A DNA stretch of 32,000 nt from Candidatus Heimdallarchaeota archaeon (lineage in GTDB: Archaea > Asgardarchaeota > Heimdallarchaeia > Heimdallarchaeales > Heimdallarchaeaceae): contig DAOVER010000026.1 of assembly GCA_030668875.1 (NCBI GenBank), positions 9,222 through 41,221 of the forward strand, read 5' to 3'. A model generated the notes under the pieces. That model had not been told where the DNA came from and did not search any database. It saw only the letters and a list, made by a program, of their open reading frames with translations. Made by a program: the position numbers and the translations under genes. Each line of letters opens with the position of its first letter. The stretch's first letter is position 1. This document shows positions 136-14,778 of the stretch, piece by piece.

Positions 136-3100
136 TTGTCTGATGATAAAAGAGCAAAGAAAATGTCAGCAGCTGCATTCTTTAATGATAATAAAGCAAT
201 AGCTGGCTTTGGAAATTCAATGCGGGCAGTATTTACGAGTATCAGAGAACTTGTAGAAAATGGTTTGGATGCTGCAGAAATCAGGGGAGTCAACCCTGTT
301 ATTTCAATTTATTTACGCAAACTTTCTAGTAGAGAAATTAATGATTTGCTAGATGTAACCCAATATAAAAAGTTGGAAAAACATCTTGATTTTCTGCAAT
401 TAACCTGTAGAGATAATGGGGTTGGAGTTCCAAGCAATCAAATAGCGGATTTGTTTGGACGAGTATTAACAGGAACTAAATATGGTGTAATTCAGACTCG
501 TGGTCGATTTGGCCTCGGAGCAAAAATGTGTTTACTTCACTCTATGTCTTCAGTTGATTTACCAGCACGTATCAAGAGTCGTTACTTCATGGATGATATG
601 ACTCATGAACTTCATCTAATGATAGATCTTGAAAGAAATCAACCTATCGTCATGGAACAAAGAGAATATTTATCTGGAGACCCAAATGCGTTAGAAGAAC
701 CAGGTGTTGAGATTAGCATAACCTTTACTGGCGCTTGGAGATTAGCAAAGAATAGTGTTAAGGAGTACTTCAGACAATTAGCCATTATTACTCCTTATGC
801 AAGTTTTGACATAAAAGTTCCTGGAGATAAGGAAGGAGAATTTGAGGAATTACATTATGTGAATGTAGTAGATGATATGCCTCCTCCCCCCCAGCATATT
901 AAAATTCATCCTTGGGGATGTGATATCACTCAATTCAAAGCAGAATTGTCTTCCACTAAAACTAAAAAAATGAAGGCATTTCTTGCTGAACATTTTATGG
1001 GAGTAACGAATGAAATTGCTGAAGATTTCTTCCAGTTACTAGAAATAGACCCAAACAAATCACCTTCGAATATAACTTCGAAGGAAATACGAAGAATAGT
1101 ACATGAAGGTTTTATTAAAGCTTATCAAGAAGCTAAGGATGTTAAGAGGAAACGAGACAGAATATTCCAATTTGATCCACCACGAGGAGATGCCCTTTCT
1201 CCATTAGGTGCAGGGAGACTAAGGAAAGGTCTAGAGAAAGAATTGCAACCAAAATTTGTTGAAGCTGTTACAAGACCTCCTAAAGCTTACTCTGGTCATC
1301 CTTTTGCAATTGAAGCAACTATGGGTTATGGTGGGAGTGTAAATGAAGCTGCTCAAGCTAAAGGAGCTACCGTTAATGATAATAAGATAATTTACAGGTA
1401 TGCTAACAGAATACCACTGATTTTTGGAGCAGGAAATGATGTAATTACTCAAGTTGTTTCCTCTATCCGATGGAACGACTATGGTCTAACTAGACAGTCT
1501 GATCCTCTTGCAATTGCAGTTTCATTAGTTAGTACAAAAATACCTTTCCCTGAAACAAGTAAAGAGTATATTTCTAATGTTCCTGAAATTGAAGAAGAAA
1601 TAAGATTAGCTCTGATGCAACTAGGAAGGAGACTCAAAACCTTTTTGAGCAGAGCAAAACGAAGAAAAAGAGAACATGCAAGGTTATCCAGATTTGTTAA
1701 ATCAGCACCAGTTATAATTGAAAACCTTACCCAAATTCTTGAAGATGAGAACCTTAAATTCACCGATTTCCGACTAGAAACAGATCGAATTTCTGCATCT
1801 CTAGCTCATGGTTCTCCAAAGAAAGTTCGCTTGTATATGCCAATTGGAACGCGATTATTCGGAGCAAATGTTTGGTGTCCAAATAATATTCAAACAGCAT
1901 TAAAAAATAATAATATTGAGTCAGTTTCAGAATTTCTACTTAAAGATTCAAAAGAATTAGCTGCGTTCCTTCAAATGACAAAAGCTCAGATTTACGATAT
2001 AAAGTTAAGAACTATCTCTGAATTAGACAGAGACAACTTGAGTCCAAGTTTTGATACAAAGACCTTAGTGTCTCGTCTTGTTGAACGAAGGTTCTCCTCT
2101 GAAGGTGAAAGACGGTACATTTCCTTGAAAGATGCATTATACAGACGATGGATACAAAATGTTTACCACTATTTAGCAACAGATTTTGATAAACTTCGTG
2201 CTGTTTCAGGAATGCTAGAGAAGTTCTTCGAAACTAAGAAAGATGAATTACTTAATGATTACTTAGCTAAAGGAGCTAAGACAGGTAAAAACACTATATC
2301 AACTATAGACAAAGCTATTGCTACTTTCAATACTGTATCAGACTTAAAGAAAGAACAACTCTATCCTCCCTTTAAGTATTTAAAATCTGAGACTGACAAT
2401 GTTCTTGGAGAAGATTTGTCAATAGAAGAATTTCTTTACCAGACTGTACAACCCACATCTATTAACTATCATCCAGAAATAACTCGAACGCTTATTGAGT
2501 ATTTGAAAATTGTATTTACACAAATCACTAATAAATTCCCTGCATTTGCTGCAAGCAATATAACAAGAATGAAACCTGATTGGACAGATGGTTATACAAA
2601 AAATGCCTTCCATAGAAGAAAGATAAAAACAGTTAATGATTTTCTGAACCACTCTACAGATGATCTTATTGATATAAAAGAACTGGAAAGAATATTGTAT
2701 GAACAATACATAGAACTAATTGCTTCAAATTCAAAATCTGTTCCTTTGAAAGATTTCTCTTTTGTTGAAATTCAACAGTTAAAAGAGGATGAAACTCTTG
2801 TTATGAAAGATTTAGCTAAACACGGAATAAAGACTCTTGCTCAGTTCTTAAGCTGTACCTCTGAAAAAATATTACTAAAGAAGTTTAATACTTTAGGTAC
2901 TCTTTTACTGAAGGAATCAAAGTTCAAATTATCTGCAAATTTACATGATACTAACAGGATTGTTGATCAATCTCACATCAAAATTATTCCTGAAAATGTT
3001 GAAACAGAATTTGTAAGAAATCAAATATTTACAACTTCTTCTTTTTTGGCGAAATCTTCTGTAATATTAAAGAAAATGGGAATGAAGAAGAAAGATATTG

Positions 3101-6100
3101 AGAGAGCAAAGAAGGAACTTGGTACTCCTTTACAGAATTGGGTCGATCATGATGAAATTCTCAAGAAATGTGGTATAGTAATCTTAGAAGAATTATTCTT
3201 TAATGATTCATCCGAATATAATCTTACACCTGAAGAAAAGAAAAAGTATGATGAAAACATCATTTTCCTCCGTTCTCCACTGATTTTTGCTCTACCCGAA
3301 TTAAGAAGTTCCTCCCATCTTCTTACTGAAATTGGTATTAACAATATTGGACGTTTCCTAATATGGTCTAATTCTGAACTCTCAGATATCCTTTATCTAT
3401 CTGTCAATGAGATAAAAGCTCTGAAGAAGAAAATTGTTTATCAAAAACAAATTCAATCTAGGGATGAACTAGGGAAAGGCTTAACACTTCTTTCAAGGCA
3501 CTATCCTAATTTGGTGAAATATTTTGATAAAGAAGCACCATCGATTCAGGATTTATATTATGCTTATCAGTCAGAAAATTTCTCGTTTAATACAGGTTTT
3601 TGGAAAAAACTATACAAACTGAGTGAACTATCTCAACAAGAAGCTATTGATTTAGTTCATCTTTATCCTAAGAACTTCAAAGATATTGATACATTAAAAG
3701 AAGCACTCCTACGTTTGAAATCAAGGAATGTTGAAACTATACGTCAATTCATGGAATTGCAACCAGAGATAATTGAATCAAAATTGAGTGTCTCAAAGGA
3801 AAGGAAAGTTGCTAGAGCTCTCTATGATACGATCCGATCAAGAAGATTTGAAGGAGAACAAGAATTACACAAACAAATACTTCTTCTTAGTGAGTATGAT
3901 GAATTTCAAAGAAATTTTGGTTCTCCTATTTCTAGGATTCCTGAACTTGCTCTGGAAGAATTAGAGAAATTTCGAAGTCACGATATATTAGCTGTTCATC
4001 AGATATTCGATCATACAGTAGACGAAATAGCTACTGTGCTTGGTCGTGAAAAAGGATCAGTACAACAATTCATGAGCAGTTTTACCCTCTTACAGAAAGG
4101 AACACCATTCTTTGAAAAAGTAGATAGAAACAAATACAAATCACTAGTTTCATTTGAATTTGAGGATCTTGAACGTTTCTCTTCAATCGAGATTCAATCC
4201 CTTATTCAAGCTGGTTACGCTTCAGTTGACCAGATTTTTTATCTAACCCATCCACTTACTTTTTCCTCTTCCATTCTGAACTGGAATGTTGTAGACAAAT
4301 TTAGAAAATTATTACGATCACCTCTTACATTGGTTACATGGGAGAAAACAGTTAAGACAAAAACTTTTGATGAGACTGAGAATAAAGAAGTTGAAGTTGA
4401 GGACGTTCAAATTTCTACATTAACTACTTTACAATTAAATATTTTACAGAATCAAGGTATTTCAAGAATCATCGACCTTCTTGTAAGCAAACCAGAAACA
4501 CTTGCAGAAGCTCTTAGCATCAGTATGGAAGAAGCCAAGATACTCCAGAAAGATATCAGAATTAGTGACACTGGAACTGATTTAGCAGAATTGGACATCT
4601 TCAAATCAGAAATTGTTGATAAATTAGAGGAAAACAATGTTCTTACTCTTGAGGATTTATACTTCTCAACTTCGAAGAGCAAATGGAGAGTTAAAGAAGT
4701 TCCATGGGATATCATAGAATCATTCAAAAGTATTCTCAACCTTCCTCTTGCACATCTGTCAGATATGTTGGATGAAGATATTCTAACTGCTTTAGAGGAT
4801 GCTAATGTTAAAACTCTGTTAGGATTTATGCTTACAACTCCTGAAAGTTTAATGAATAAAACAGGTATACCTGATGAAAGATTTGAAACAATAAAACGCG
4901 GTATGGATATTTCTGACATATTCAGTTACTTCTCACTTCCAAGTTATTTCCTCCCAGGTTTAACCTTCCAGCAAACCGAGATTCTAAAAGAAAATGGTCT
5001 TAAATCAGTCGCAGAATTTATAATCAGCTCTCCACAGAAAATTAACAAATTAATCAAAGTGCCTGCTAAGCAATTCCGAGAAATCACTGCAGATTTAACC
5101 ACTCAAAGCCTACAAGCTCTGTATGATGAGAAAGGAATCTTTGCTTTTGAGACAAAGCTCTTCGATAAAATGGAACAACGACTATTGGGAAGGGATTCAA
5201 TATTTGAATTTGATAGGTTTCAAACCATCCAAGAAATGTATTATACACTGAATAGAGATTTCTATCAAAATAATCAAGACCTATGGGAAAAGGTCTCTGC
5301 AATCCAAAAAGTATTATCACTTCCTCTGCACATATTCACCGAAATCTCTGAATATGCTCTTGAAATTATGAGCCAAAATGGTATTAATTATGTTTATCAG
5401 CTACTCTTTATTCATGATTCAGATATAACTGATCCATTACTATTCAGAACTGTATCAACTTATTCTTCCAAAATAATCGAAATGAGAGCTTTTCATTACT
5501 TTTCCAAGCTTCCTGCTTTTGTTTATAATTCAAACTATTTCAAGAGAATATTGAAGGATACTGTTAACAAATCTCTCTCAGACGTTATTACTGATGAAAA
5601 GGTAATCAAAGATTTAGCTGCAAAAGATAAACAATATTTATACGAAAACTATAACTTAACTATCATTCGTTCAATTCTAGAACTACCACTTAGAATTACT
5701 CCTTACTTTACAAGAATAAAGAAAGTTAGAAGGGATGAATATAAAAATACGAAAATTGGTGATGTTTTCGATATTGATTTAGAAGAACATTCTGCTCTCT
5801 CCTCCTTTTACTCTAGATTATATGAAGAAAACTCTTTCAATAAATTAATCTCGCAATTAACTATCCCAATATCTTCAATGGGATTACCCCGTGAACTTGC
5901 CTTAAAACTAAGCAAATCATCCATAGGTACATTAATAGATTTTTATTCCACTCCTGAGAAACAAGTTTCTGAAATCACTGGTTTTTCACAGAAGAACATT
6001 CGAGAAATAAAAGATGGATTAACATATTCAAACATTGTTTCTTTCCGAGTATCACAAGCTCATAAAATAAAACCTTCTTCCTTTGTATCAGAAAAGCAGA

Positions 6101-9100
6101 TTTTCGACCTTATGGGGAAATCGATATCGGATATAGAATCTCTCTTTTACTCCGCAGAACATTTAGGAATCTCAAAATTACTCCCTCTTGAAAATTATAA
6201 GAAAATCAAGGAAATTCTATCTGGGTCTATAAGATTTGTAGGATTTCTCTCATTTGATGAAATAAGAAGGTTAGAGTATCATAATATTAATTCGATAATT
6301 GATTTTGCTCTACTCTCTAAAAAAGATCTCTTTACCATTACACAAAACCCCATTTACAAGGAGTTTCATGTTCTAGATTTGATTTCCTTTGATGAGTTAT
6401 CAGAGAAAAGGATTCAAGCTGCTATACCTCTCTCATTGTGCCCCTCGATAGAAGAAGATTACTTAGAGAAAATAAAAGAAATTGGAATAAACTCCATTCA
6501 AGATTTTATCTCAAGAATGACAGAAATTAGAGAATCTCATCCTCATCTAGTAAAATTAGATATCTTCCGAGAAGTACAAATGTATCTCTCTTCTGTAGCT
6601 TATATTGGACTTAATAATGAAAGTGTCCAGAAACTCATTTACTCAGGTGTTGGCGATATCTTATCTTTCATAACTGAAGACCCTTCAACTATATCTCTGA
6701 TTCTTGGAATAAGTGAAAAACAAGTTGATAAATATGTCAAACTTGCAGTTCCAAGTAATTTGGTTGAGAAAGTAGACAACAAAGGTGTTCTTCTTACAGA
6801 ATTTTCTGGATTATCTAGAGGAAGGAGAAATTCCTTACTAAAATCTGGAAAAGAAACAGTTCAAGATCTATTTAGTTCTCGTTATCAAGCTTATTCTCAA
6901 TCTAACATCTCTGATGCGTTGATGAGCGAATTTATTGAAAGCTGTAATATGTCGTTATACAGAATTGAAGAAATTGAACCAGGAATTAAGGCTAAGCTTT
7001 CAAAGAGTGGAATAACAAGAATTATTGATTTATTCTGCAGTACTGATGCAGGACTAAAGAAAGCTCTTGATGGTAAACTCCCCAAAGAGTTTAAGCAAAT
7101 TAGAAAAGGTCATTTCACCTTAACAAAAGGAATTCCGCTAAGTTTGAATGAACCCCTGCAAGATATTATTAGAGAACTTAATATCGAACCTTCCAACAAA
7201 AAGATTGAGGACATGTTTGGTTTTGTACCTGAATTTTTGCTTCAATTTACAGAATCTGAAAGAATTGAGAAGGATAAGAATTTAGCATTCCTAGAACAGA
7301 TAGTAAGTTTCTTGAGTCTTAATATTCTATCATTACCGTCATTTGATACCACCACTAAACTGATTCTTTGGAATCGTGGTATCCGCCATATAATAGAACT
7401 ATTATCCACGAATATGAACAAAATTGATGGTATCCCATATCAAGTAATCTCAGAGGTTCGATCTTACCAGAAAAATTTTAGTTTAAGTAGAAGCATGTCA
7501 GAGACATTTTCTCCATATATTGATGATGTACTCAATTTACCTGTTAAAAAGCAAATTAGATTCCAGAATTATGGTCTCACTAGTGCTTTATTACTAGTTG
7601 ATTTCATACCTCATCCCATATTCAGTTTCACTGCAAATGAGCAATCTATTCTCCGGATTATTTCAAATAACATGTTCAAACCAATAACCTGGTTATCTTC
7701 AGATGTATCATTTAAGATTGAAGACATAAACTTACTAATTCAAAATAGAGCTATAAACATCCTTTCAGCTCTGCTTCTATTATCTGATCAAGATGATACT
7801 AAAGCACTAGATACTTTATCTAATAAATACTATAAACCGATTTCTGCTTACCTCAATTCATCTGTCTTACAACTTAGTGCCCCTGAATGGGCTCTACAAT
7901 TATCTAATACAAAGATAATAACAGATGCTAATAGCCTAAAATTACTAAAGAAAGAGAACATTTCTTATCTTGATGAATTCCTGACATTAGAAAGCAAGTT
8001 TTTGAATAACCCTAATCTTATAACCGATGTTTTACCAAAACTACTTTCACTAAAAAGCCTCCCCATATCCTCCATCAGTGACCTATCACCCAGTAATATT
8101 CAAAAATTAAAACGTTCAAGAATAAACAATGTTTATGAGTTTCTTGTAGTTCCTGCTCCATTGCTTTCAAATCTTCTATCAATTTCTGTTGAGAATGTTA
8201 ACGCAACTAAATCTTCAATTGATCTTTCTTCATTAGAAAAAACAGCAAAACTTACTGGTTTGGACCTAGAACTCTTCCCAGAACTTTCCCAAGATTCTAG
8301 AATAATTCTTCAAAGAAGAGGTTGTGTGTCTCTGAATCAAGCATCGAAGATGGATCTAGATCTCATTCCACTTCTTTCAGAAGATAAGTTACTTTTACAA
8401 AACCTTATCGCTATGTTATTTACTCCCACCACATTAATTGGAAAAATACTTAAATTAACAAAGAATGAAATTGATGAATTACTAATTCGTGATGTATGTA
8501 CATATGTAGACCTCTTAGAGCTTCCTCAAAAAACTTGGCCTGCAAAAATAAGGAAAAGTTTGTCAGATAAGGATTCTGATCCAACATATCTAATTAAGAA
8601 CTTACAAAACCTTGAGAAATTCGGAGTGCCTATAGAAAAGCTAGATTTAGCAAAAAGTGTTACTAAAGCGCTAGTAGATGCAGGAATTGTAACAATTGAT
8701 CATCTATACTATCTACCCATAACCTATGTAAGTGCAAGGAGTAAAGTTAAACAACCCATTCTTGAAGAAATTAAGAAGAAATTATCCTACAATATAAATT
8801 TCCTTCAAGATATCTCACATACAACTTTAGCTGGTTGTTATTCGAAAGATTCTTTTACGATAATTAGTTGCTTGATTTACTGGAATAATTTATCTAAGGA
8901 AATAAGAACAGATTTGGAAGGTTCTCTAGACAGTATCAAACTAATTGAAGAAACAAGATTTATTGAACCACTGACTCCAACGGAAACAAAGCTAGAATCT
9001 ATTGGTATTCACTCGTTAAGATCATTCATTTTATCCCCACAGATTAAAAAAGAAACAGGTTTAGCAACCAAACTATTACCATCTCTATTAGCTAATATTC

Positions 9101-12100
9101 GTTTCCTAAGTCTAGATCCAAAGCAGATTTCTCGCTTGAAGAAAACTGGTTTTGTTACAGTGGCAGATTTGCTTCTAAATACTTCAAAAACAATATCTGT
9201 TAAATCCAAATTAGGTAAGAATGCAATTGATGAAATTCTCAATAACATAAAAATTGATAACTTAACCAGTTTGATTAAATCGATGGAACAAGAGCATTTA
9301 CATGATGCATTTTATCTGAGTACTAATGACAAAACATTCTTGAAATCAATAGGTGTTTATAGTTTAGCAGACTTAAACGAGTATACTGTTCTTGACTGGT
9401 TTGTTTCTAAACAAAAAATCCAAAAAATCAAAAAGAAAATTAACGCTTTGTTAGATACTAATATCCTTTACTATCCAGGAATTACATCTAAACAATATGC
9501 AGAAGTTGTTGAACAATACTTCATGAGGAATATATTTACGATCAAAGATCTAATGATATCAACAACAGTCGAGAAGACAAGTGATTTGATTGAATTTCTA
9601 ACCATTTTCTCTACTAACAAACCTAAAATCCAATCCCAATATGTGACCTCTCTTTCATTCTTAAAAGGCATTGAAACCAAGGATTTGTTCGAGAAAAATG
9701 TTAAATTAGAAAAATCTGCAACAATTAATGATCTTATAGTAGCATTATACAGAAATTCTGAGGAATTGACCAAAAAGGGCGATGATATTATCAAACAGAT
9801 TAACTACCCAATTTCTTTTTCATCAAAACTTAACCTCAATGAAGCAAATGATTTACGAAGCAAAAACATCCTTTCATATGGAGATGTACTTACCAAACCA
9901 GTAGGTTATTGGGGGACTTTTGCTTCAGCGAAACTAAAGAAGAAGATTCTTGAAATTCTTAGTACAATTACATCACAAAACATTGAAAATGAAGGTAAGA
10001 AGAGAGTTCAATTAAGTAGCATGAAAATATTCGATACAAACCTTAAGAAACAGCTTACATCAAATTATAAGACAATTGATGAAGTTATTCATGCAATAAA
10101 AACAGAAGATACTAAAATCTTAAAACCATTGGAAAGGAAAATCACTAAAGTTTTGTCTACTCCTATCTCTCTTCTCAAATTACCAAAAATCAAGATTAAA
10201 TCATGGAAAAGACTTATATCGACTGTATCTACTTTAGAAGAATTCTACTTATTAACAGATCAAGAATTAGTCAAAATTCTATCCTCAAGCAAGGAAGAAA
10301 TTGTTAAATTAAAGATCAATCTCGGGTCTGAAAATATCATCTTACCTCCAAGAATAAAGGAAAATAAGATCTTTACTAGTTCAGATGTTACAGAACTAAG
10401 TGCTAATGGGATTTCAAATTATGTACAGCTTTTTGAAGTGACAATAGAAATTTCTAAACTCAGCACTTCGTTAAAGGATAAAATTGCCTTCTACAAGGAG
10501 TTTGATGTTAAGCAATTGGACGAGAACATAGAAGAAACCATACTCCTGAAAGATTTTGTATTTCTTGACTTTTATGCAGATTCTCTGGCTCTAAGTAGAA
10601 TACAAAAGGAATCTGTAAAGAATCTTTCCTCCTTGCTCTTGTCTCGTGGAACTCATCTATCAAAGATATTTGATATAGATCTATTTGATATAGATCCCAA
10701 TAAAGACAAAAGTAATCTGCTCAATACAACTATAGAGTATTTCCTCTTGATCGAGAAATATCGACCTAAGGTTTACACAAAAATTGTTGAATCTTTACAA
10801 GAAAAATACTCTTCACAATTAAACACTTTGCTTTCTTATCTTAATAGGTCACCAATTCTCCTTTCAGGACCAAATCTGTCAAATATTAACAAAATAGTTA
10901 AACTTCCTTATGAAAATATAAAGGACTTGCTCTTACTATCCAAGGAGAAACTTATTCGAGAAATAAATGATGTTGCTGTTCAAAGAAATGTTAGAGGATT
11001 GACATTATCTGTTTTGAAAGATCTTGATTCCAAGCTGACTTATATTCCAAAAGAGTTTTTGACAGCTTACGAGATAAACCAATTAAAGAAAGAGAATATT
11101 TATTCCTTTGAAGAAGCTTTGGTTTTCAATAGAAAGTCAACTAGTAGAAAATCTAAGCCTTGGTTACTATCTGAAAAAGTAAGAAAAATATCCACTATTA
11201 ACACGCTCTCACTTTCTTCTTATCTCCCCTCATCTAAAATACAAGAAAGACTACTGAAACTTAAAATAACCAATGTGTATGAACTGGTTTATTATTGCCA
11301 GAATACAGAAAAAGAAGAAGACTTGAGTCTTTGCCAATCTGTTATTCAATCTGTAAGTTCTATTAATATTGAGGAAATTGAAACAAAAGAGAGAAGTAGA
11401 TTTACTAAATTCTTTAATGACCCCGATATTCTTTCTTATTTACGAAGTCAAGATATCAGAACTTTTGGACCTTTAGTACATTATTTAGAACAGTTAGAGG
11501 ATGAAGCTTTTACCCCTGAAATTGAGAAAATCTTATCCGTTATGCGTTTTCCAGTTTCTGTATTGTCAGATAATAAGAAACTTGTGCTAAAACTAGAAGG
11601 TGAAGGTTATAACCAAGTAGTTAATCTTCTTATTCCTGCAAAAATAATCAATAGTTTGAAAAGCAATATTACCGAGAATCAGAAGAAAGTTCTCACCTCT
11701 CTGATTAACATGCTTACTTATCAAGAAATATGTCGAATAATCACAAAAGATCATTATCCGATATCAAAACTTAGTTTAATCGATGATATTTTGTTAAAAG
11801 AGTTAGTAAAGGCTGGATATGCATCAGTAGCTCATCTCAAATCAGCTGAAACAATTATTGCTGATACTAGCAAACTAAATCTACAACAAATTTCTCGTAT
11901 TGTAAGACTCTTTGATTCGTCTATTTATTACATGTCTGAAATGCTTAAAGACTATCCACAAAGTGCTTTTACTTTGTACAATAAAGGAGTTAACACACTA
12001 TGGGATATTTTCCTAGTTGGAAGTAAGGAAATTTCCAAGATTACAGGTATTTCTGTTCGACAGATAACTTCCTATTTATCAACTCTCAATCCTCAAGCAA

Positions 12101-12765
12101 TAAAACTTGCTCAAAAAGACCAAATTGCACTAAAAGAAAAGCTTACCTACTTAACTGTTGAAGATGTTGAACGATTAGAACAAAGTAACATCACTTCCAT
12201 ACAACAGTTATTGTTCCTTACAAAGGAAAATAAGACCACCTCTTCGCTCCAGCGAAGTAATGTGAAGAAATTCATCCAGCTACTTGGAATGCCTTTAAAT
12301 GCAATAGATATACAAGAGACAATTATTAAACAGCTAGAACAACAAGGTATCACTTTAGTAAAAGATTTCATTATTTATCCAGCAGAACCTATGGCTGGCA
12401 AAGTAGATTTAAGCTATGTTATGATTAAAAGGATTAAGGGAAGACTCCCCTTAGCTACAAAAAAGAAGGCTAAGAAATCTTCTCAAAAAACTTCTTCAGC
12501 AAAACCTACAACCACAAAGAAAACTACAATTGCCAAGAAATCAGTAACAACTCAACGAAAAGCTAAGACAACAACCGCCTCTTCTAAACCAAAACCAAAA
12601 GCTAAGGTTAAGCCAAAAGCTAAAGCTAAACCAAAACCAAAACCAAAATCAACTAAACAGATGACTTTGATGGATATGAAATCTACTTCAAAAAAGAAAT
12701 CATCTCCAACTTCAAAAACGAGAAAAAGCTCAAAAACCACTACGAAAAAAGGTGAAAAATCATGA
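136..12765 (+). CDS. top6B: Giant DNA topoisomerase VI subunit B fused to a ~50-module HhH-like array and a basic C-terminal tail (4209 aa)
   Basis: The first ~540 aa carry the Top6B GHKL motifs ELVENGLDA, DNGVG and GTKYGVIQTRGRFGLG, an H2TH segment (FLAEHFMGVTNEIAEDFF) and the transducer motifs RYANRIPL and IPFPETSKEYI (switch Lys). The ORF overlaps top6A by ATGA. The rest is repeated LxxPIxx(L)...L...G(I/V)x(T/S)(I/V)xx(L/F) modules. Confidence 0.95.
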   Translation: MSDDKRAKKMSAAAFFNDNKAIAGFGNSMRAVFTSIRELVENGLDAAEIRGVNPVISIYLRKLSSREINDLLDVTQYKKLEKHLDFLQLTCRDNGVGVPSNQIADLFGRVLTGTKYGVIQTRGRFGLGAKMCLLHSMSSVDLPARIKSRYFMDDMTHELHLMIDLERNQPIVMEQREYLSGDPNALEEPGVEISITFTGAWRLAKNSVKEYFRQLAIITPYASFDIKVPGDKEGEFEELHYVNVVDDMPPPPQHIKIHPWGCDITQFKAELSSTKTKKMKAFLAEHFMGVTNEIAEDFFQLLEIDPNKSPSNITSKEIRRIVHEGFIKAYQEAKDVKRKRDRIFQFDPPRGDALSPLGAGRLRKGLEKELQPKFVEAVTRPPKAYSGHPFAIEATMGYGGSVNEAAQAKGATVNDNKIIYRYANRIPLIFGAGNDVITQVVSSIRWNDYGLTRQSDPLAIAVSLVSTKIPFPETSKEYISNVPEIEEEIRLALMQLGRRLKTFLSRAKRRKREHARLSRFVKSAPVIIENLTQILEDENLKFTDFRLETDRISASLAHGSPKKVRLYMPIGTRLFGANVWCPNNIQTALKNNNIESVSEFLLKDSKELAAFLQMTKAQIYDIKLRTISELDRDNLSPSFDTKTLVSRLVERRFSSEGERRYISLKDALYRRWIQNVYHYLATDFDKLRAVSGMLEKFFETKKDELLNDYLAKGAKTGKNTISTIDKAIATFNTVSDLKKEQLYPPFKYLKSETDNVLGEDLSIEEFLYQTVQPTSINYHPEITRTLIEYLKIVFTQITNKFPAFAASNITRMKPDWTDGYTKNAFHRRKIKTVNDFLNHSTDDLIDIKELERILYEQYIELIASNSKSVPLKDFSFVEIQQLKEDETLVMKDLAKHGIKTLAQFLSCTSEKILLKKFNTLGTLLLKESKFKLSANLHDTNRIVDQSHIKIIPENVETEFVRNQIFTTSSFLAKSSVILKKMGMKKKDIERAKKELGTPLQNWVDHDEILKKCGIVILEELFFNDSSEYNLTPEEKKKYDENIIFLRSPLIFALPELRSSSHLLTEIGINNIGRFLIWSNSELSDILYLSVNEIKALKKKIVYQKQIQSRDELGKGLTLLSRHYPNLVKYFDKEAPSIQDLYYAYQSENFSFNTGFWKKLYKLSELSQQEAIDLVHLYPKNFKDIDTLKEALLRLKSRNVETIRQFMELQPEIIESKLSVSKERKVARALYDTIRSRRFEGEQELHKQILLLSEYDEFQRNFGSPISRIPELALEELEKFRSHDILAVHQIFDHTVDEIATVLGREKGSVQQFMSSFTLLQKGTPFFEKVDRNKYKSLVSFEFEDLERFSSIEIQSLIQAGYASVDQIFYLTHPLTFSSSILNWNVVDKFRKLLRSPLTLVTWEKTVKTKTFDETENKEVEVEDVQISTLTTLQLNILQNQGISRIIDLLVSKPETLAEALSISMEEAKILQKDIRISDTGTDLAELDIFKSEIVDKLEENNVLTLEDLYFSTSKSKWRVKEVPWDIIESFKSILNLPLAHLSDMLDEDILTALEDANVKTLLGFMLTTPESLMNKTGIPDERFETIKRGMDISDIFSYFSLPSYFLPGLTFQQTEILKENGLKSVAEFIISSPQKINKLIKVPAKQFREITADLTTQSLQALYDEKGIFAFETKLFDKMEQRLLGRDSIFEFDRFQTIQEMYYTLNRDFYQNNQDLWEKVSAIQKVLSLPLHIFTEISEYALEIMSQNGINYVYQLLFIHDSDITDPLLFRTVSTYSSKIIEMRAFHYFSKLPAFVYNSNYFKRILKDTVNKSLSDVITDEKVIKDLAAKDKQYLYENYNLTIIRSILELPLRITPYFTRIKKVRRDEYKNTKIGDVFDIDLEEHSALSSFYSRLYEENSFNKLISQLTIPISSMGLPRELALKLSKSSIGTLIDFYSTPEKQVSEITGFSQKNIREIKDGLTYSNIVSFRVSQAHKIKPSSFVSEKQIFDLMGKSISDIESLFYSAEHLGISKLLPLENYKKIKEILSGSIRFVGFLSFDEIRRLEYHNINSIIDFALLSKKDLFTITQNPIYKEFHVLDLISFDELSEKRIQAAIPLSLCPSIEEDYLEKIKEIGINSIQDFISRMTEIRESHPHLVKLDIFREVQMYLSSVAYIGLNNESVQKLIYSGVGDILSFITEDPSTISLILGISEKQVDKYVKLAVPSNLVEKVDNKGVLLTEFSGLSRGRRNSLLKSGKETVQDLFSSRYQAYSQSNISDALMSEFIESCNMSLYRIEEIEPGIKAKLSKSGITRIIDLFCSTDAGLKKALDGKLPKEFKQIRKGHFTLTKGIPLSLNEPLQDIIRELNIEPSNKKIEDMFGFVPEFLLQFTESERIEKDKNLAFLEQIVSFLSLNILSLPSFDTTTKLILWNRGIRHIIELLSTNMNKIDGIPYQVISEVRSYQKNFSLSRSMSETFSPYIDDVLNLPVKKQIRFQNYGLTSALLLVDFIPHPIFSFTANEQSILRIISNNMFKPITWLSSDVSFKIEDINLLIQNRAINILSALLLLSDQDDTKALDTLSNKYYKPISAYLNSSVLQLSAPEWALQLSNTKIITDANSLKLLKKENISYLDEFLTLESKFLNNPNLITDVLPKLLSLKSLPISSISDLSPSNIQKLKRSRINNVYEFLVVPAPLLSNLLSISVENVNATKSSIDLSSLEKTAKLTGLDLELFPELSQDSRIILQRRGCVSLNQASKMDLDLIPLLSEDKLLLQNLIAMLFTPTTLIGKILKLTKNEIDELLIRDVCTYVDLLELPQKTWPAKIRKSLSDKDSDPTYLIKNLQNLEKFGVPIEKLDLAKSVTKALVDAGIVTIDHLYYLPITYVSARSKVKQPILEEIKKKLSYNINFLQDISHTTLAGCYSKDSFTIISCLIYWNNLSKEIRTDLEGSLDSIKLIEETRFIEPLTPTETKLESIGIHSLRSFILSPQIKKETGLATKLLPSLLANIRFLSLDPKQISRLKKTGFVTVADLLLNTSKTISVKSKLGKNAIDEILNNIKIDNLTSLIKSMEQEHLHDAFYLSTNDKTFLKSIGVYSLADLNEYTVLDWFVSKQKIQKIKKKINALLDTNILYYPGITSKQYAEVVEQYFMRNIFTIKDLMISTTVEKTSDLIEFLTIFSTNKPKIQSQYVTSLSFLKGIETKDLFEKNVKLEKSATINDLIVALYRNSEELTKKGDDIIKQINYPISFSSKLNLNEANDLRSKNILSYGDVLTKPVGYWGTFASAKLKKKILEILSTITSQNIENEGKKRVQLSSMKIFDTNLKKQLTSNYKTIDEVIHAIKTEDTKILKPLERKITKVLSTPISLLKLPKIKIKSWKRLISTVSTLEEFYLLTDQELVKILSSSKEEIVKLKINLGSENIILPPRIKENKIFTSSDVTELSANGISNYVQLFEVTIEISKLSTSLKDKIAFYKEFDVKQLDENIEETILLKDFVFLDFYADSLALSRIQKESVKNLSSLLLSRGTHLSKIFDIDLFDIDPNKDKSNLLNTTIEYFLLIEKYRPKVYTKIVESLQEKYSSQLNTLLSYLNRSPILLSGPNLSNINKIVKLPYENIKDLLLLSKEKLIREINDVAVQRNVRGLTLSVLKDLDSKLTYIPKEFLTAYEINQLKKENIYSFEEALVFNRKSTSRKSKPWLLSEKVRKISTINTLSLSSYLPSSKIQERLLKLKITNVYELVYYCQNTEKEEDLSLCQSVIQSVSSINIEEIETKERSRFTKFFNDPDILSYLRSQDIRTFGPLVHYLEQLEDEAFTPEIEKILSVMRFPVSVLSDNKKLVLKLEGEGYNQVVNLLIPAKIINSLKSNITENQKKVLTSLINMLTYQEICRIITKDHYPISKLSLIDDILLKELVKAGYASVAHLKSAETIIADTSKLNLQQISRIVRLFDSSIYYMSEMLKDYPQSAFTLYNKGVNTLWDIFLVGSKEISKITGISVRQITSYLSTLNPQAIKLAQKDQIALKEKLTYLTVEDVERLEQSNITSIQQLLFLTKENKTTSSLQRSNVKKFIQLLGMPLNAIDIQETIIKQLEQQGITLVKDFIIYPAEPMAGKVDLSYVMIKRIKGRLPLATKKKAKKSSQKTSSAKPTTTKKTTIAKKSVTTQRKAKTTTASSKPKPKAKVKPKAKAKPKPKPKSTKQMTLMDMKSTSKKKSSPTSKTRKSSKTTTKKGEKS
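1860..12450 (+). repeat. Protein-level array of ~50 diverged HhH / alphaCTD-like modules within Top6B
   Basis: Examples: LTIPISSMGLPRELALKLSKSSIGTLIDFYSTPEKQVSEITGFSQKNIREIKDGL (5857-6021), KSLPISSISDLSPSNIQKLKRSRINNVYEFLVVPAPLLSNLLSISVENV (from 8053), FGVPIEKLDLAKSVTKALVDAGIVTIDHLYY and LGMPLNAIDIQETIIKQLEQQGITLVKDFII. The count is by eye and approximate. Confidence 0.85.
12460..12762 (+). repeat. Low-complexity Lys/Ser/Thr/Ala/Pro-rich tail with KP/KA dipeptide repeats
   Basis: KKKAKKSSQKTSSAKPTTTKK...KPKPKAKVKPKAKAKPKPKPK...KKGEKS; the DNA has AAACCA repeats at about 12586-12648. Confidence 0.9.
12751..12755 (+). promoter_or_regulatory. Shine-Dalgarno motif for top6A, inside the end of top6B
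   Basis: GGTGA lies 6 nt upstream of the ATG at 12762. Confidence 0.7.
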
Positions 12766-14171
12766 GTTCAGATCATAAATTTGTTATTAGTAATTCAACA
12801 GTTTTACCTGCTATTGAGAGAACTGCTTCTTTTGATAAGGATATTCTAGTTAGAGAAATATACAGTTGGGCTAGAGAAACATTTGACCTCAAACGAGGAT
12901 CATATGTATTATTCTTAAGAAGCTTCAAGAAATGGCACAAACTTGAACCTACAAGAAAATTATCTAGATACAATCTCCAAAAGGAAACAATGAGCATTAG
13001 CATAAAAAACTCAGTTTCAATAGACAAACTACAATCCGTTAGAGAAGAACTAGAACATTTAACAAAATACTTAATGCCTTTTGGTGTTACTCACGTAGCA
13101 ACCAAGAATTCACAAGAAACAAACAATCTTCTTGTTGAATATGCTTTAGATTTCCTAAATCAAGCAATGGTGTCACCTAATGATGCAGCTTTTCAGATTC
13201 CATCTAGAGCGGGAACAAATGTAGGTTTTGATGAGGATCAAGAATTAGTTCTTATCGGTCGTCAAATGATTGATAGACAATTTAGAAATTTAGCTTCAGT
13301 AAGTTCTGTTGAGCAAATGACCATTGTTATGAAACTCATTCACGATATTCTTTCCAGAGATATTCACAGTACTAAAAGAGATATATTCTATATGAATGTA
13401 AATGCATTTGATAAGCAGTCTGTTTCTGATTCTCTTATAGAAGATGTGGGAGCAATGTTACAAGTTACTCGTTCATCTTTGAATATTAGTGCTTCTTCCA
13501 AAGGGATTGTTGTTGGACGTATTAGTTTCAAAGAAAAAGGGGATCTCATAGATTGTCGTGCAATAGGAGCTGGCAAAGCTATATCACCAAATATTGATGA
13601 TATAGAGAGTATGGAAACTGATGCAGAAATGTGTTTGGTTATTGAGAAGGATGCTGTCTTCAATAGGCTTGCAGAGGATCAGTTCTATGATTATGTCCCA
13701 AGCATCCTCATAACAGCAAAAGGTCAACCGGATATAGCTACAAGACAATTTTTGAAGAAAATAAACGATGATCTCAGTCTACCTATATTTGCTATTATGG
13801 ATGCCGACCCTTATGGTTTTGAAATTATGCGTGTATATAGCGTAGGGAGCAAAGCATTGAGCTTTGAATCAAGTCATCTAGCCGTACCTAGTATTAAATG
13901 GTTGGGTTTACTACCAAGTGATCTTTCTCCTGAAAGTGGATTTGATATTCCAAGAAGTGCTTTAATTAAAATGACTTCTAAAGACATTCATCGATCTAAA
14001 CTGATGCTAGATGAGGAATTTGTCAAAAGAAAACCAAAATGGAAAGAGCAACTAGAAATCCAAATAGCAACTGGGTTTAAAGCTGAAATACAAGCACTTA
14101 ATGCAAGAGACCCACAATATATTACTAATTTCTATCTTCCACAAAAAATTGAGGCGGGAGATTTTATCTAA
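12762..14171 (+). CDS. top6A: DNA topoisomerase VI subunit A (Spo11 family) with an N-terminal ubiquitin-like domain
   Basis: The catalytic Tyr motif is TKRDIFY (Y210, nt 13389-13391). Toprim motifs are VIEKDAVF and DADPYG, with ITAKGQPD and KAEIQAL also present. Residues ~5-82 resemble a beta-grasp Ubl domain. Confidence 0.97.
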   Translation: MSSDHKFVISNSTVLPAIERTASFDKDILVREIYSWARETFDLKRGSYVLFLRSFKKWHKLEPTRKLSRYNLQKETMSISIKNSVSIDKLQSVREELEHLTKYLMPFGVTHVATKNSQETNNLLVEYALDFLNQAMVSPNDAAFQIPSRAGTNVGFDEDQELVLIGRQMIDRQFRNLASVSSVEQMTIVMKLIHDILSRDIHSTKRDIFYMNVNAFDKQSVSDSLIEDVGAMLQVTRSSLNISASSKGIVVGRISFKEKGDLIDCRAIGAGKAISPNIDDIESMETDAEMCLVIEKDAVFNRLAEDQFYDYVPSILITAKGQPDIATRQFLKKINDDLSLPIFAIMDADPYGFEIMRVYSVGSKALSFESSHLAVPSIKWLGLLPSDLSPESGFDIPRSALIKMTSKDIHRSKLMLDEEFVKRKPKWKEQLEIQIATGFKAEIQALNARDPQYITNFYLPQKIEAGDFI

Positions 14172-14232: not shown

Positions 14233-14613
14233 TTACTTTAGCAGGACAATCTCAATTGTGGATACTGTTTTTGGACCATAACCTTCTACATCACTTGGCA
14301 ATTCTTCAGATCCTATAACCACTTTATCAATTACTACGCTGTCTATCGGGTATTTTCTACGAGCTATTTCAGCAACATCAACTGCTTTCGAGATTTGTCT
14401 TCCACGGGCTTGAATTCCACACTTATTATGTTTATTGAGTATTGTAATTGCAACTAAAACATAGCTAATCGTTGGTTTCTTTCCGATGTAAATAATATGA
14501 CTCCGCTCTCTGTACTCAGTTGTGGGTTTAGTGGCTTCTTTAGGCGTTTCTTCTTTCTTAGCTTCTTCCTTAGCTTCTTTCTTAGCTTCTTCCTTAGCTT
14601 CTTCTTTACTCAT
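14233..14613 (-). CDS. albA: Alba DNA/RNA-binding chromatin protein with an N-terminal EEAK repeat
   Basis: IYIGKKP...YV...ARGRQISKAVDVAEI...IGSEE...VSTIEIVL are Alba motifs. ATG at 14613 is preceded by AGGTGA and is preferred over the GTG at 14622. Confidence 0.95.
   Translation of the reverse strand: MSKEEAKEEAKKEAKEEAKKEETPKEATKPTTEYRERSHIIYIGKKPTISYVLVAITILNKHNKCGIQARGRQISKAVDVAEIARRKYPIDSVVIDKVVIGSEELPSDVEGYGPKTVSTIEIVLLK
14557..14604 (-). repeat. 4 x 12-bp tandem repeat encoding (E/K)EAK
   Basis: On the + strand: CTTAGCTTCTTC, CTTAGCTTCTTT, CTTAGCTTCTTC, CTTAGCTTCTTC. Confidence 0.9.
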
Positions 14614-14778
14614 GAATTTCACCTATATTCCATTGTCTGTCAAATGCTTCAGTATAAGCGTTATTAAAATGTCATTCCCACGTTTAAAAATTTTTCCTCC
14701 TCCTTAAGTGACACACAAAAGAACAAATAAATACATTAAGGTAAAACAAGAATAGGGCTTAATAAGGCCAAAGGATGT

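Follow-up and report, generated by a model that had tools for sequence, protein, structure and literature searches.

Background

Topoisomerase VI (Topo VI) and Spo11 belong to a family that acts in archaeal decatenation, plant endoreduplication and the formation of meiotic double-strand breaks. The solved Top6A and Spo11 chains (2zbk, 1d3y, 2q2e and 8urq) share a core of a 5Y-CAP and a Toprim domain, and none of them has an N-terminal ubiquitin-like (Ubl) domain. This report concerns a Top6A in which such a domain is very probably present. Its gene, top6A, lies in a 32,000-nucleotide stretch of DNA from Candidatus Heimdallarchaeota archaeon (the window; GenBank assembly GCA_030668875.1, contig DAOVER010000026.1, positions 9,222 to 41,221), where it occupies positions 12762–14171 and encodes 469 amino acids and a stop codon (window features are on the + strand unless noted). 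The protein has the standard 5Y-CAP and Toprim core with its RDIFY motif, but the solved chains align with it from residue 120 on only.

The extra domain resembles several described types. Integral (type-2) Ubls are like it in having no C-terminal Gly-Gly (GG) and in being permanently part of a larger protein. The Ubl domains of TBCB and TBCE, the DUSP-UBL of USP11 and USP15, and talin F0 have the same beta-grasp fold (Z 10.3–11.9, root-mean-square deviation (rmsd) 1.9–2.7 Å, 80–82 residues), though at 10–22% identity, and the host here is the catalytic subunit of an archaeal type IIB topoisomerase. Rad23, Dsk2, Ddi2 and UBXD7 also have integral Ubls (Z 10.1–11.0), with no specific sequence signature in common with this one. 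The SUMO-like domains of Rad60, Esc2 and NIP45 (PF11976) are likewise integral, non-conjugatable and part of genome-maintenance proteins. These form C-terminal tandem pairs in eukaryotic proteins that work together with Smc5/6 and the SUMO pathway, whereas here a topoisomerase has a single domain at its N-terminus. Ubiquitin itself (PF00240) has the same order of secondary structure and one closely similar segment, and an orthologue from Ca. Borrarchaeum passes the cut-off of the ubiquitin family. Unlike ubiquitin, the Top6A domain has an isoelectric point (pI) of about 10, a longer turn between strands b3 and b4 (RSFKKWHK) and no GG, so that it cannot be conjugated.

A 2025 paper on Asgard replisome proteins (PMC12680538) treats Top6A as a eukaryotic signature protein, and in it eukaryotic Top6A/Spo11 has the conserved Asgard Top6A as its closest relative. 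The word ubiquitin is absent from its text, and none of its excerpted passages on N-termini or fusions is about Top6A. Full-text literature searches (Top6A, Spo11 or Topo VI with ubiquitin-like, Asgard or Heimdallarchaeia) returned no description of a Ubl–Top6A fusion. The original prediction, an earlier reading of the window from its sequence alone, stated that no Ubl–Spo11/Top6A fusion was known. For the papers searched this holds, but RefSeq names one such protein, the Ca. Borrarchaeum sp. orthologue WP_287583880.1 (L030:362–1753, − strand), only as a "ubiquitin-like protein", although it is a full Top6A of 463 amino acids. Other orthologues are labelled "hypothetical protein", "meiotic recombination protein SPO11" or "DNA topoisomerase (ATP-hydrolyzing)". 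The label "ubiquitin-like protein", which is also found in the ESM Atlas, hides the topoisomerase identity. What is new is an integral Ubl on a new host protein, in archaea.

A ubiquitin-like domain at the N-terminus of Top6A

Residues ~1–84 of Top6A almost certainly form an integral, non-conjugatable ubiquitin-like beta-grasp domain. An AlphaFold2 model of residues 1–125, made from a shallow alignment of 22 sequences, had a mean predicted local distance difference test score (pLDDT) of 77.6, with values of 76–90 across the domain. The model has strands at residues 5–11 and 18–24, a helix at 30–40 and strands at 48–54, 57–60 and 76–83, followed by a helix at 87–103. This is the beta-beta-alpha-beta-beta-3(10)-beta topology of the Ubl beta-grasp fold, and it places the domain at residues 5–83 (12774–13010). 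A single-sequence AlphaFold2 model of the full 469-residue protein was unusable (mean pLDDT 34).

Comparisons with known structures gave the same fold. Foldseek found 48 matches in the PDB at E ≤ 1e-3, nearly all of them to ubiquitin or Ubls (best E 8e-5). In a VIA-align comparison with 48,161 chains the top rows were Ubl-type beta-grasp domains (Z 9.9–11.9, 71–85 residues aligned), with an rmsd of 1.6–2.7 Å for most of them and ~2 Å overall; the matches include the TBCE and TBCB Ubls, the USP11 DUSP-UBL, SUMO, ISG15, FAT10, talin F0, Dsk2 and UBXD7. A shape search of the ESM Atlas led to a cluster of 65 Heimdall-group proteins with TP6A_N and Toprim domains, which bears the automatic name "ubiquitin-like protein". 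The strands and helix that had been parsed from the sequence in the original prediction agree with the AlphaFold2 model in nearly every element, and the beta-grasp fold that it proposed was recovered by AlphaFold2, by Foldseek and by Pfam scans of orthologues alike.

The sequence resemblance to ubiquitin lies in the segment LEPTRKLSRYNLQKET, residues 61–76 (12942–12989), which covers the end of b4, the 3(10) turn and the loop into b5. The 10 identities in 16 positions that had been reported between this segment and ubiquitin 50–65 were confirmed with the ubiquitin sequence as printed in the PDB. It is the only 16-mer in a six-frame translation of the window with more than 6/16 identities to ubiquitin, and the maximum in 30 shuffled windows was 8/16, which puts the match above chance. 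Run against all PDB sequences, a profile of 17 orthologues matched ubiquitin chains only, always with query residues 60–76 on ubiquitin 49–65. These matches are weak, at ~4 bits per domain, and the E of 0.0025 for tetra-ubiquitin is reached because four repeats are summed. K74, the equivalent of K63 in ubiquitin, is invariant among 17 close homologues only and is not kept in more distant families.

Several orthologues have Pfam matches of their own. The Borrarchaeum orthologue passes the cut-offs for ubiquitin (PF00240, 30.6 against 25.4) and for Rad60-SLD (PF11976, 32.6 against 23.8, E 7e-8). A distant orthologue, P0024, matches Ubiquitin_2 (PF14560) at E 7e-5, with 23.7 bits against a cut-off of 23.1, and other distant N-termini match ubiquitin and UN_NPL4 at E ~0.004. 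The orthologous N-termini are joined by the family profile at E 1e-13 to 1e-52; for P0024 and the Borrarchaeum protein the values are 1e-13 to 1e-16, with the domain at the same position in an open reading frame (ORF) of the same length. An hhalign comparison of the Heimdall-type N-termini with those of a Hodarchaeota-labelled family gave a probability of 95% (E 2e-8).

Searches for the domain outside Top6A returned little. In 1.84 billion representative proteins the 17-orthologue profile had seven matches; the ones longer than about 125 amino acids include Top6A sequence, and the shorter ones are probably fragments. These matches give no hint that this Ubl subtype is attached to other proteins, at least within reach of this narrow profile. 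A feature-based search of a protein atlas with residues 1–104 gave no usable match, and a search for related loci with a narrower profile found same-genus Heimdallarchaeota metagenome-assembled genomes only. The fused family and the free Ubl encoded in the same genome were marginally similar in hhalign (E 0.0045, probability 8%), and no claim is made that the fused domain came from the free one.

The domain is integral

None of 30 sequences from seven families has a GG at the end of the domain, and in the window protein the last strand continues as ...SIKNSVSIDKL into the linker helix. The exposed or processable C-terminal Gly-Gly of a conjugatable Ubl is thus missing in every lineage, which makes the domain an integral Ubl, neither a modifier nor a cleavable precursor. 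It had been called integral, for want of a GG, from the window alone, and the wider set bears this out.

The earlier wording, "Ubl/UBX-like", needs to be narrowed: Ubl stands, UBX is not specifically supported. UBX domains have an R...FPR loop between b3 and b4 that binds p97. In the window protein this loop reads RSFKKWHK, and the UBX family was absent from every Pfam scan of the N-termini at E ≤ 10. The UBX domain of UBXD7 (Z 10.5) is one among many equally scored Ubl matches, with no specific structural preference for it.

Two other accounts of the domain were rejected. Eukaryotic ubiquitin is made as N-terminal fusions, for example with ribosomal proteins, and the window's own sequence is under every Pfam cut-off, so a cleavable ubiquitin-fusion precursor and a chance resemblance without a beta-grasp were both considered. 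Either is extremely improbable: across 30 sequences from seven families the domain ends without a GG or any other conserved cleavage motif, and chance is excluded by the fold, profile and conservation evidence.

Top6A core and partner gene

The rest of the protein is an ordinary Top6A. Pfam places TP6A_N at residues 183–242 (E 2e-21) and Toprim at 290–463 (E 8e-58). Top6A of S. shibatae (PDB 2zbk_A) aligns over residues 120–469 (E 1e-55), with its residue 17 paired to residue 120, which sets the canonical core at 13119–14168. The core motifs are RDIFY, with Tyr210 at 13389–13391, IEKDA from residue 294 and DADPYG from residue 347; from the RDxxY motif of Spo11 and Top6A in general, Tyr210 is presumably the catalytic tyrosine. 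The 5Y-CAP (TP6A_N) and Toprim domains, the tyrosine and the acidic motifs together make this a member of the Top6A/Spo11 family. Since the catalytic motifs are present and the alignment starts at residue 120, the core is preceded by an N-terminal extension of ~119 residues, and the region to which a Ubl had been assigned (12762–13010, residues 1–83) is within it. The proposed fusion to the N-terminus of Top6A is therefore upheld. All 16 close Heimdallarchaeota homologues are 469 amino acids long and align from residue 1, with 57–93% identity in the extension.

Two elements connect the domain to the core. The linker helix (residues 87–103, 13020–13070) is predicted by AlphaFold2, and its equivalent is kept in the Top6A of a Ubl-less family. 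The motif MPFGVTHV (residues 105–112, 13074–13097; in general form (M/L)P(Y/F/D)G(V/I)xxV) is invariant or nearly so across 17 homologues, with low pLDDT in the model of the isolated domain. Ubl-less Asgard Top6As have counterparts such as LPDGIHEI and LPEGVHVV.

The partner gene top6B (136–12765, 4209 amino acids) is directly upstream, with the arrangement of an operon: the top6A ATG overlaps the top6B stop codon (ATGA, 12762–12765). Top6B has a GHKL/transducer core to about residue 515, in which Pfam identifies Topo-VIb_trans at residues 349–515 (E 9e-55) and, weakly, HATPase_c. This core is followed by an array of helix-hairpin-helix-like (HhH-like) repeats and a basic tail. A Shine-Dalgarno-like AGGTGA (12750–12755) can be read 6 nucleotides 5' of the top6A ATG.

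Distribution and selection

The search of Asgard Top6A N-termini that had been suggested as a check was made with a combined profile over 399 Asgard genomes, and found the Ubl in seven families. It is present in 27 of the 29 genomes of Heimdallarchaeaceae (f1 in the present numbering, which includes Ca. Heimdallarchaeum endolithica), in 1/1 of f2, 3/3 of f3, 12/12 of f4, 20/22 of f5 (members labelled Hodarchaeota or Promethearchaeota), 2/2 of f6 and 3/5 of f28 (Ca. Borrarchaeum). Nearly every genome with the domain has a single copy, and the open frame that contains it is in every case ~460–500 amino acids long. None of the 12 genomes of f7 has it by this profile, and the rest of the phylum yielded four marginal matches (E 0.003–0.01), none in a frame of Top6A size.

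In a maximum likelihood tree of the core only, with the Ubl excluded, the 13 sampled Ubl-bearing Top6As were all in one clade (support 100/100), with the Ubl-less f7 as its sister (93/94). One clade with a Ubl-less sister points to a single gain and no observed loss. On the evidence of this tree, the Ubl was gained once, at the base of a clade of Heimdallarchaeaceae with three allied families, the Hodarchaeota-labelled group with its neighbours, and Borrarchaeum. Top6A of f7 starts exactly at the Ubl boundary and retains the linker helix and an (M/L)PxG(V/I)xxV motif, which indicates that the Ubl is a discrete N-terminal addition.

Among seven genus-level genes, mean pairwise identity was 67% in the Ubl, 61% in the linker and 87% in the core. 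The corresponding dN/dS (ratio of non-synonymous to synonymous rates) was ~0.11, 0.24 and 0.04, values that are rough because dS is near saturation. Judged by these comparisons, the Ubl is kept by purifying selection, in one copy per genome and always on Top6A.

Several Asgard genomes (G071, G074, G113, G297, G098, G311 and G361) also have a second, divergent Top6A. These proteins are encoded in open frames of 352–457 amino acids, have 27–31% identity to the core of the window protein, and branch apart in the tree as a long-branch clade of their own, in agreement with the multiple Asgard Top6A/B pairs reported previously (PMC12680538).

Enlarged Top6B in the Ubl-bearing clade

The lengths of Top6B were taken from the open frames around its core and checked by reading the ORFs. 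Top6B is very large in the families with the Ubl: 4140–4305 amino acids in f1, 4244 in f2, 3573 in f3, 3473–3587 in f4, 2312–2346 in f5, 2286–2297 in f28, and at least 1323 in f6, where the contig ends. In families without the Ubl it has 1108–1155 amino acids (f7) or 497–681 (all other Asgard families). Residues 516–1145 are collinear and conserved in every Ubl-bearing family and undetectable in f7. The clade with the Ubl is thus exactly the clade with a giant Top6B (2,286–4,305 amino acids), a pattern that is suggestive of a functional coupling between the two. A prediction of the complex between Top6B residues 516–1145 (25 alignment rows) and Top6A residues 1–104 (30 rows) scored 0.00 against a mark of 0.32, and counts neither way.

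The sizes of Top6B form steps, from 497–681 amino acids through ~1,110 (f7), ~2,290–2,345 and ~3,470–3,590 to ~4,140–4,305.

One Asgard clade, including Heimdallarchaeaceae and the Hodarchaeota-labelled lineages, has rebuilt both subunits of the enzyme together, with a Ubl on Top6A and thousands of residues of HhH-like repeats on Top6B. It offers an experimentally accessible example of how a ubiquitin fold was taken into a core archaeal enzyme of DNA topology. The domain boundaries are now defined for deletion constructs, and the RefSeq label is corrected.

Charge of the N-terminal region

The Ubl and the core of the window protein have opposite charges: the Ubl has a pI of 9.99 and a net charge of +7, the core a pI of 4.94 and a net charge of −12. 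A net charge of +6 to +8 and a pI of ~10 are typical of the Ubl, and in 28 of 30 homologues its pI is above 8.7. Families without the Ubl have short tails rich in K and R (net +2 to +18) at its position, and their cores are equally acidic. All of the conserved-type Asgard Top6As examined have some basic N-terminal appendage before the conserved motif, with a net charge of +2 to +71.

The Top6As of family f31 (L081:280–2541 in G361; L083:295–2538 in G311) are ~750 amino acids long, with basic tails of 357–385 residues rich in K, T, S and P. These tails have net charges of +37 and +71 and contain an HhH-like LPGVGPKLAERL motif. The C-terminus of the window Top6B, an HhH array with a basic tail of net +37, is the same kind of module, so the f31 appendage appears on the other subunit than in the window.

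Possible functions of the domain

The reading preferred here, and held tentatively, is that the Ubl acts in cis, as an architectural part of an enlarged Topo VI at the junction of the A and B subunits. In the holoenzymes of S. shibatae and M. mazei, the N-terminal helix of Top6A clamps the distal end of the Top6B transducer, so that the N-terminus of Top6A and the C-terminus of Top6B would exit at the same junction, beside the ends of the DNA-binding groove. The helix at residues 87–103 and the (M/L)PxGVxxV motif would tether the Ubl to the N-terminal helix of Top6A. The Ubl would then sit at the A–B junction, where the HhH arm of Top6B starts and DNA leaves the groove of Top6A. As the basic Ubl is at the position of the K/R tails of its relatives, it is proposed to be a folded, basic replacement of an ancestral basic tail. 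Its contacts may be with DNA next to the gate segment, with the initial modules of the Top6B arm, or with both; a role as a degradation tag is not part of this proposal. The appendages suggest that the A–B junction is an attachment site for accessory, probably DNA-contacting, modules in Asgard Topo VI. A precedent for a nucleic-acid-binding Ubl, SF3A1 with stem-loop 4 of the U1 small nuclear RNA, is among the structural matches.

A different function was put forward in the original prediction – a handle by which Cdc48/VAT or the PAN-proteasome is recruited to unfold or remove Top6A, for example when it is covalently trapped on DNA. The machinery is there: two Cdc48 homologues, four E2-like proteins and two clusters of Ubl and E1-like genes are found in the genome, and a ubiquitin-type system, as known from Asgard archaea, is therefore present in this organism. 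The domain is also N-terminal, integral and without GG, as are Ubl and UBX domains that recruit the proteasome or p97; its structural matches include the Ubls of Dsk2, Ddi2 and Nub1 and the UBX of UBXD7; and covalent adducts of type II topoisomerases do need removal. Nonetheless such a handle is doubtful. It has no specific support, as the UBX family is missing from Pfam scans and the loop is RSFKKWHK rather than FPR. Cdc48 is near-universal in archaea (as seen in controls), whereas the Ubl is confined to the clade with a giant Top6B. From a handle one would expect neither the conserved basic charge of the domain, nor the basic tails that Ubl-less relatives have in its place, nor a gain made only once and coupled to the giant size of Top6B. 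A constitutive "ubiquitin mark", through which Cdc48 or the proteasome would extract trapped Top6A or the ubiquitin system would control Topo VI, is unlikely. Were it true, the lineages closest to the ancestor of eukaryotes would have an archaeal forerunner of the ubiquitin- and SUMO-dependent processing by which eukaryotes deal with cleavage complexes of TOP2 and Spo11. Any tie through the Ubl between Topo VI and unfoldases or the ubiquitin system would bear on the origin of the eukaryotic control of topoisomerase adducts.

Two further explanations leave degradation aside. The Ubl could bind a partner in trans – a chromatin protein such as a putative Alba, a protein of the replication machinery, or part of the Ubl conjugation system, as Rad60-type SUMO-like domains do – and so direct Topo VI to specific sites. 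The Borrarchaeum orthologue has its best Pfam match in Rad60-SLD, which occurs as an integral SUMO-like domain in genome-stability proteins; the top of the structural list has generic protein-binding Ubls (TBCB/TBCE, USP11/15 and FERM F0); and a putative alba-like gene (14233–14622) converges on top6A. But no partner was found, the inspected loci of relatives do not share a conserved set of neighbours beyond top6B, and recruitment in trans leaves the coupling to Top6B size unexplained. There is only a modest chance that it is correct. Alternatively, the basic Ubl could pack on the acidic core or the dimer interface and gate DNA binding or cleavage, by autoinhibition or stabilization. The opposite charges of Ubl and core would fit this, as would the tether of ~35 residues, which evolves faster than both of its neighbours. 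Contact with DNA fits at least as well, given that relatives without the Ubl have acidic cores and unstructured basic tails, and regulation within the molecule is on balance improbable.

Several points weigh against an integral Ubl that acts at the A–B junction. The window's own Top6A passes no Pfam Ubl cut-off: PF00240 is not listed at E ≤ 10, and the best Ubl-type match is FERM_f0 (talin F0), at E 0.003 and 18.3 bits against a cut-off of 26.9. The link between the Ubl and the giant Top6B comes from a single evolutionary event, and so is of little statistical weight. High pI is common in the window, where 7 of the 12 ORFs of at least 200 amino acids have a pI of ~9 or higher, and the positive charge of the Ubl could equally serve packing on the acidic core. 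Placement of the Ubl on DNA or on Top6B is conjectural, and the geometry of the junction is taken by analogy from the S. shibatae and M. mazei holoenzyme structures. Finally, recruitment of proteasomes or p97 is the usual role of N-terminal Ubl domains in eukaryotes, a point in favour of the handle.

Ubiquitin-related clusters and neighbouring genes

The first of the two Ubl and E1-like clusters in the genome (G000 C91:46473–48298) encodes an 82-residue Ubl ending in ...TKGGY, beside an E1-like ThiF protein and an E2-like match. The second (G000 C80:2115–7942) encodes a 128-residue Ubl ending in ...TAGC and an E1-like protein, with an E2-like match nearby. The two Cdc48 homologues are at G000 C69:8944–9195 and C58:42323–42571.

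The ORF that converges on top6A in the window (14233–14622, − strand) encodes 129 amino acids with an EAKKE-repeat N-terminus. In the inspected loci of other families, top6A has no such neighbour.

In genome G056, a Hodarchaeota-labelled contig of 4.94 Mb, two ORFs of 657 and 827 amino acids (L027:8943–13420, − strand) are directly upstream of top6B-top6A on the same strand. Judged by eye, their N-termini are GyrB-like and GyrA-like, so that type IIA and type IIB topoisomerases would share one cluster there.

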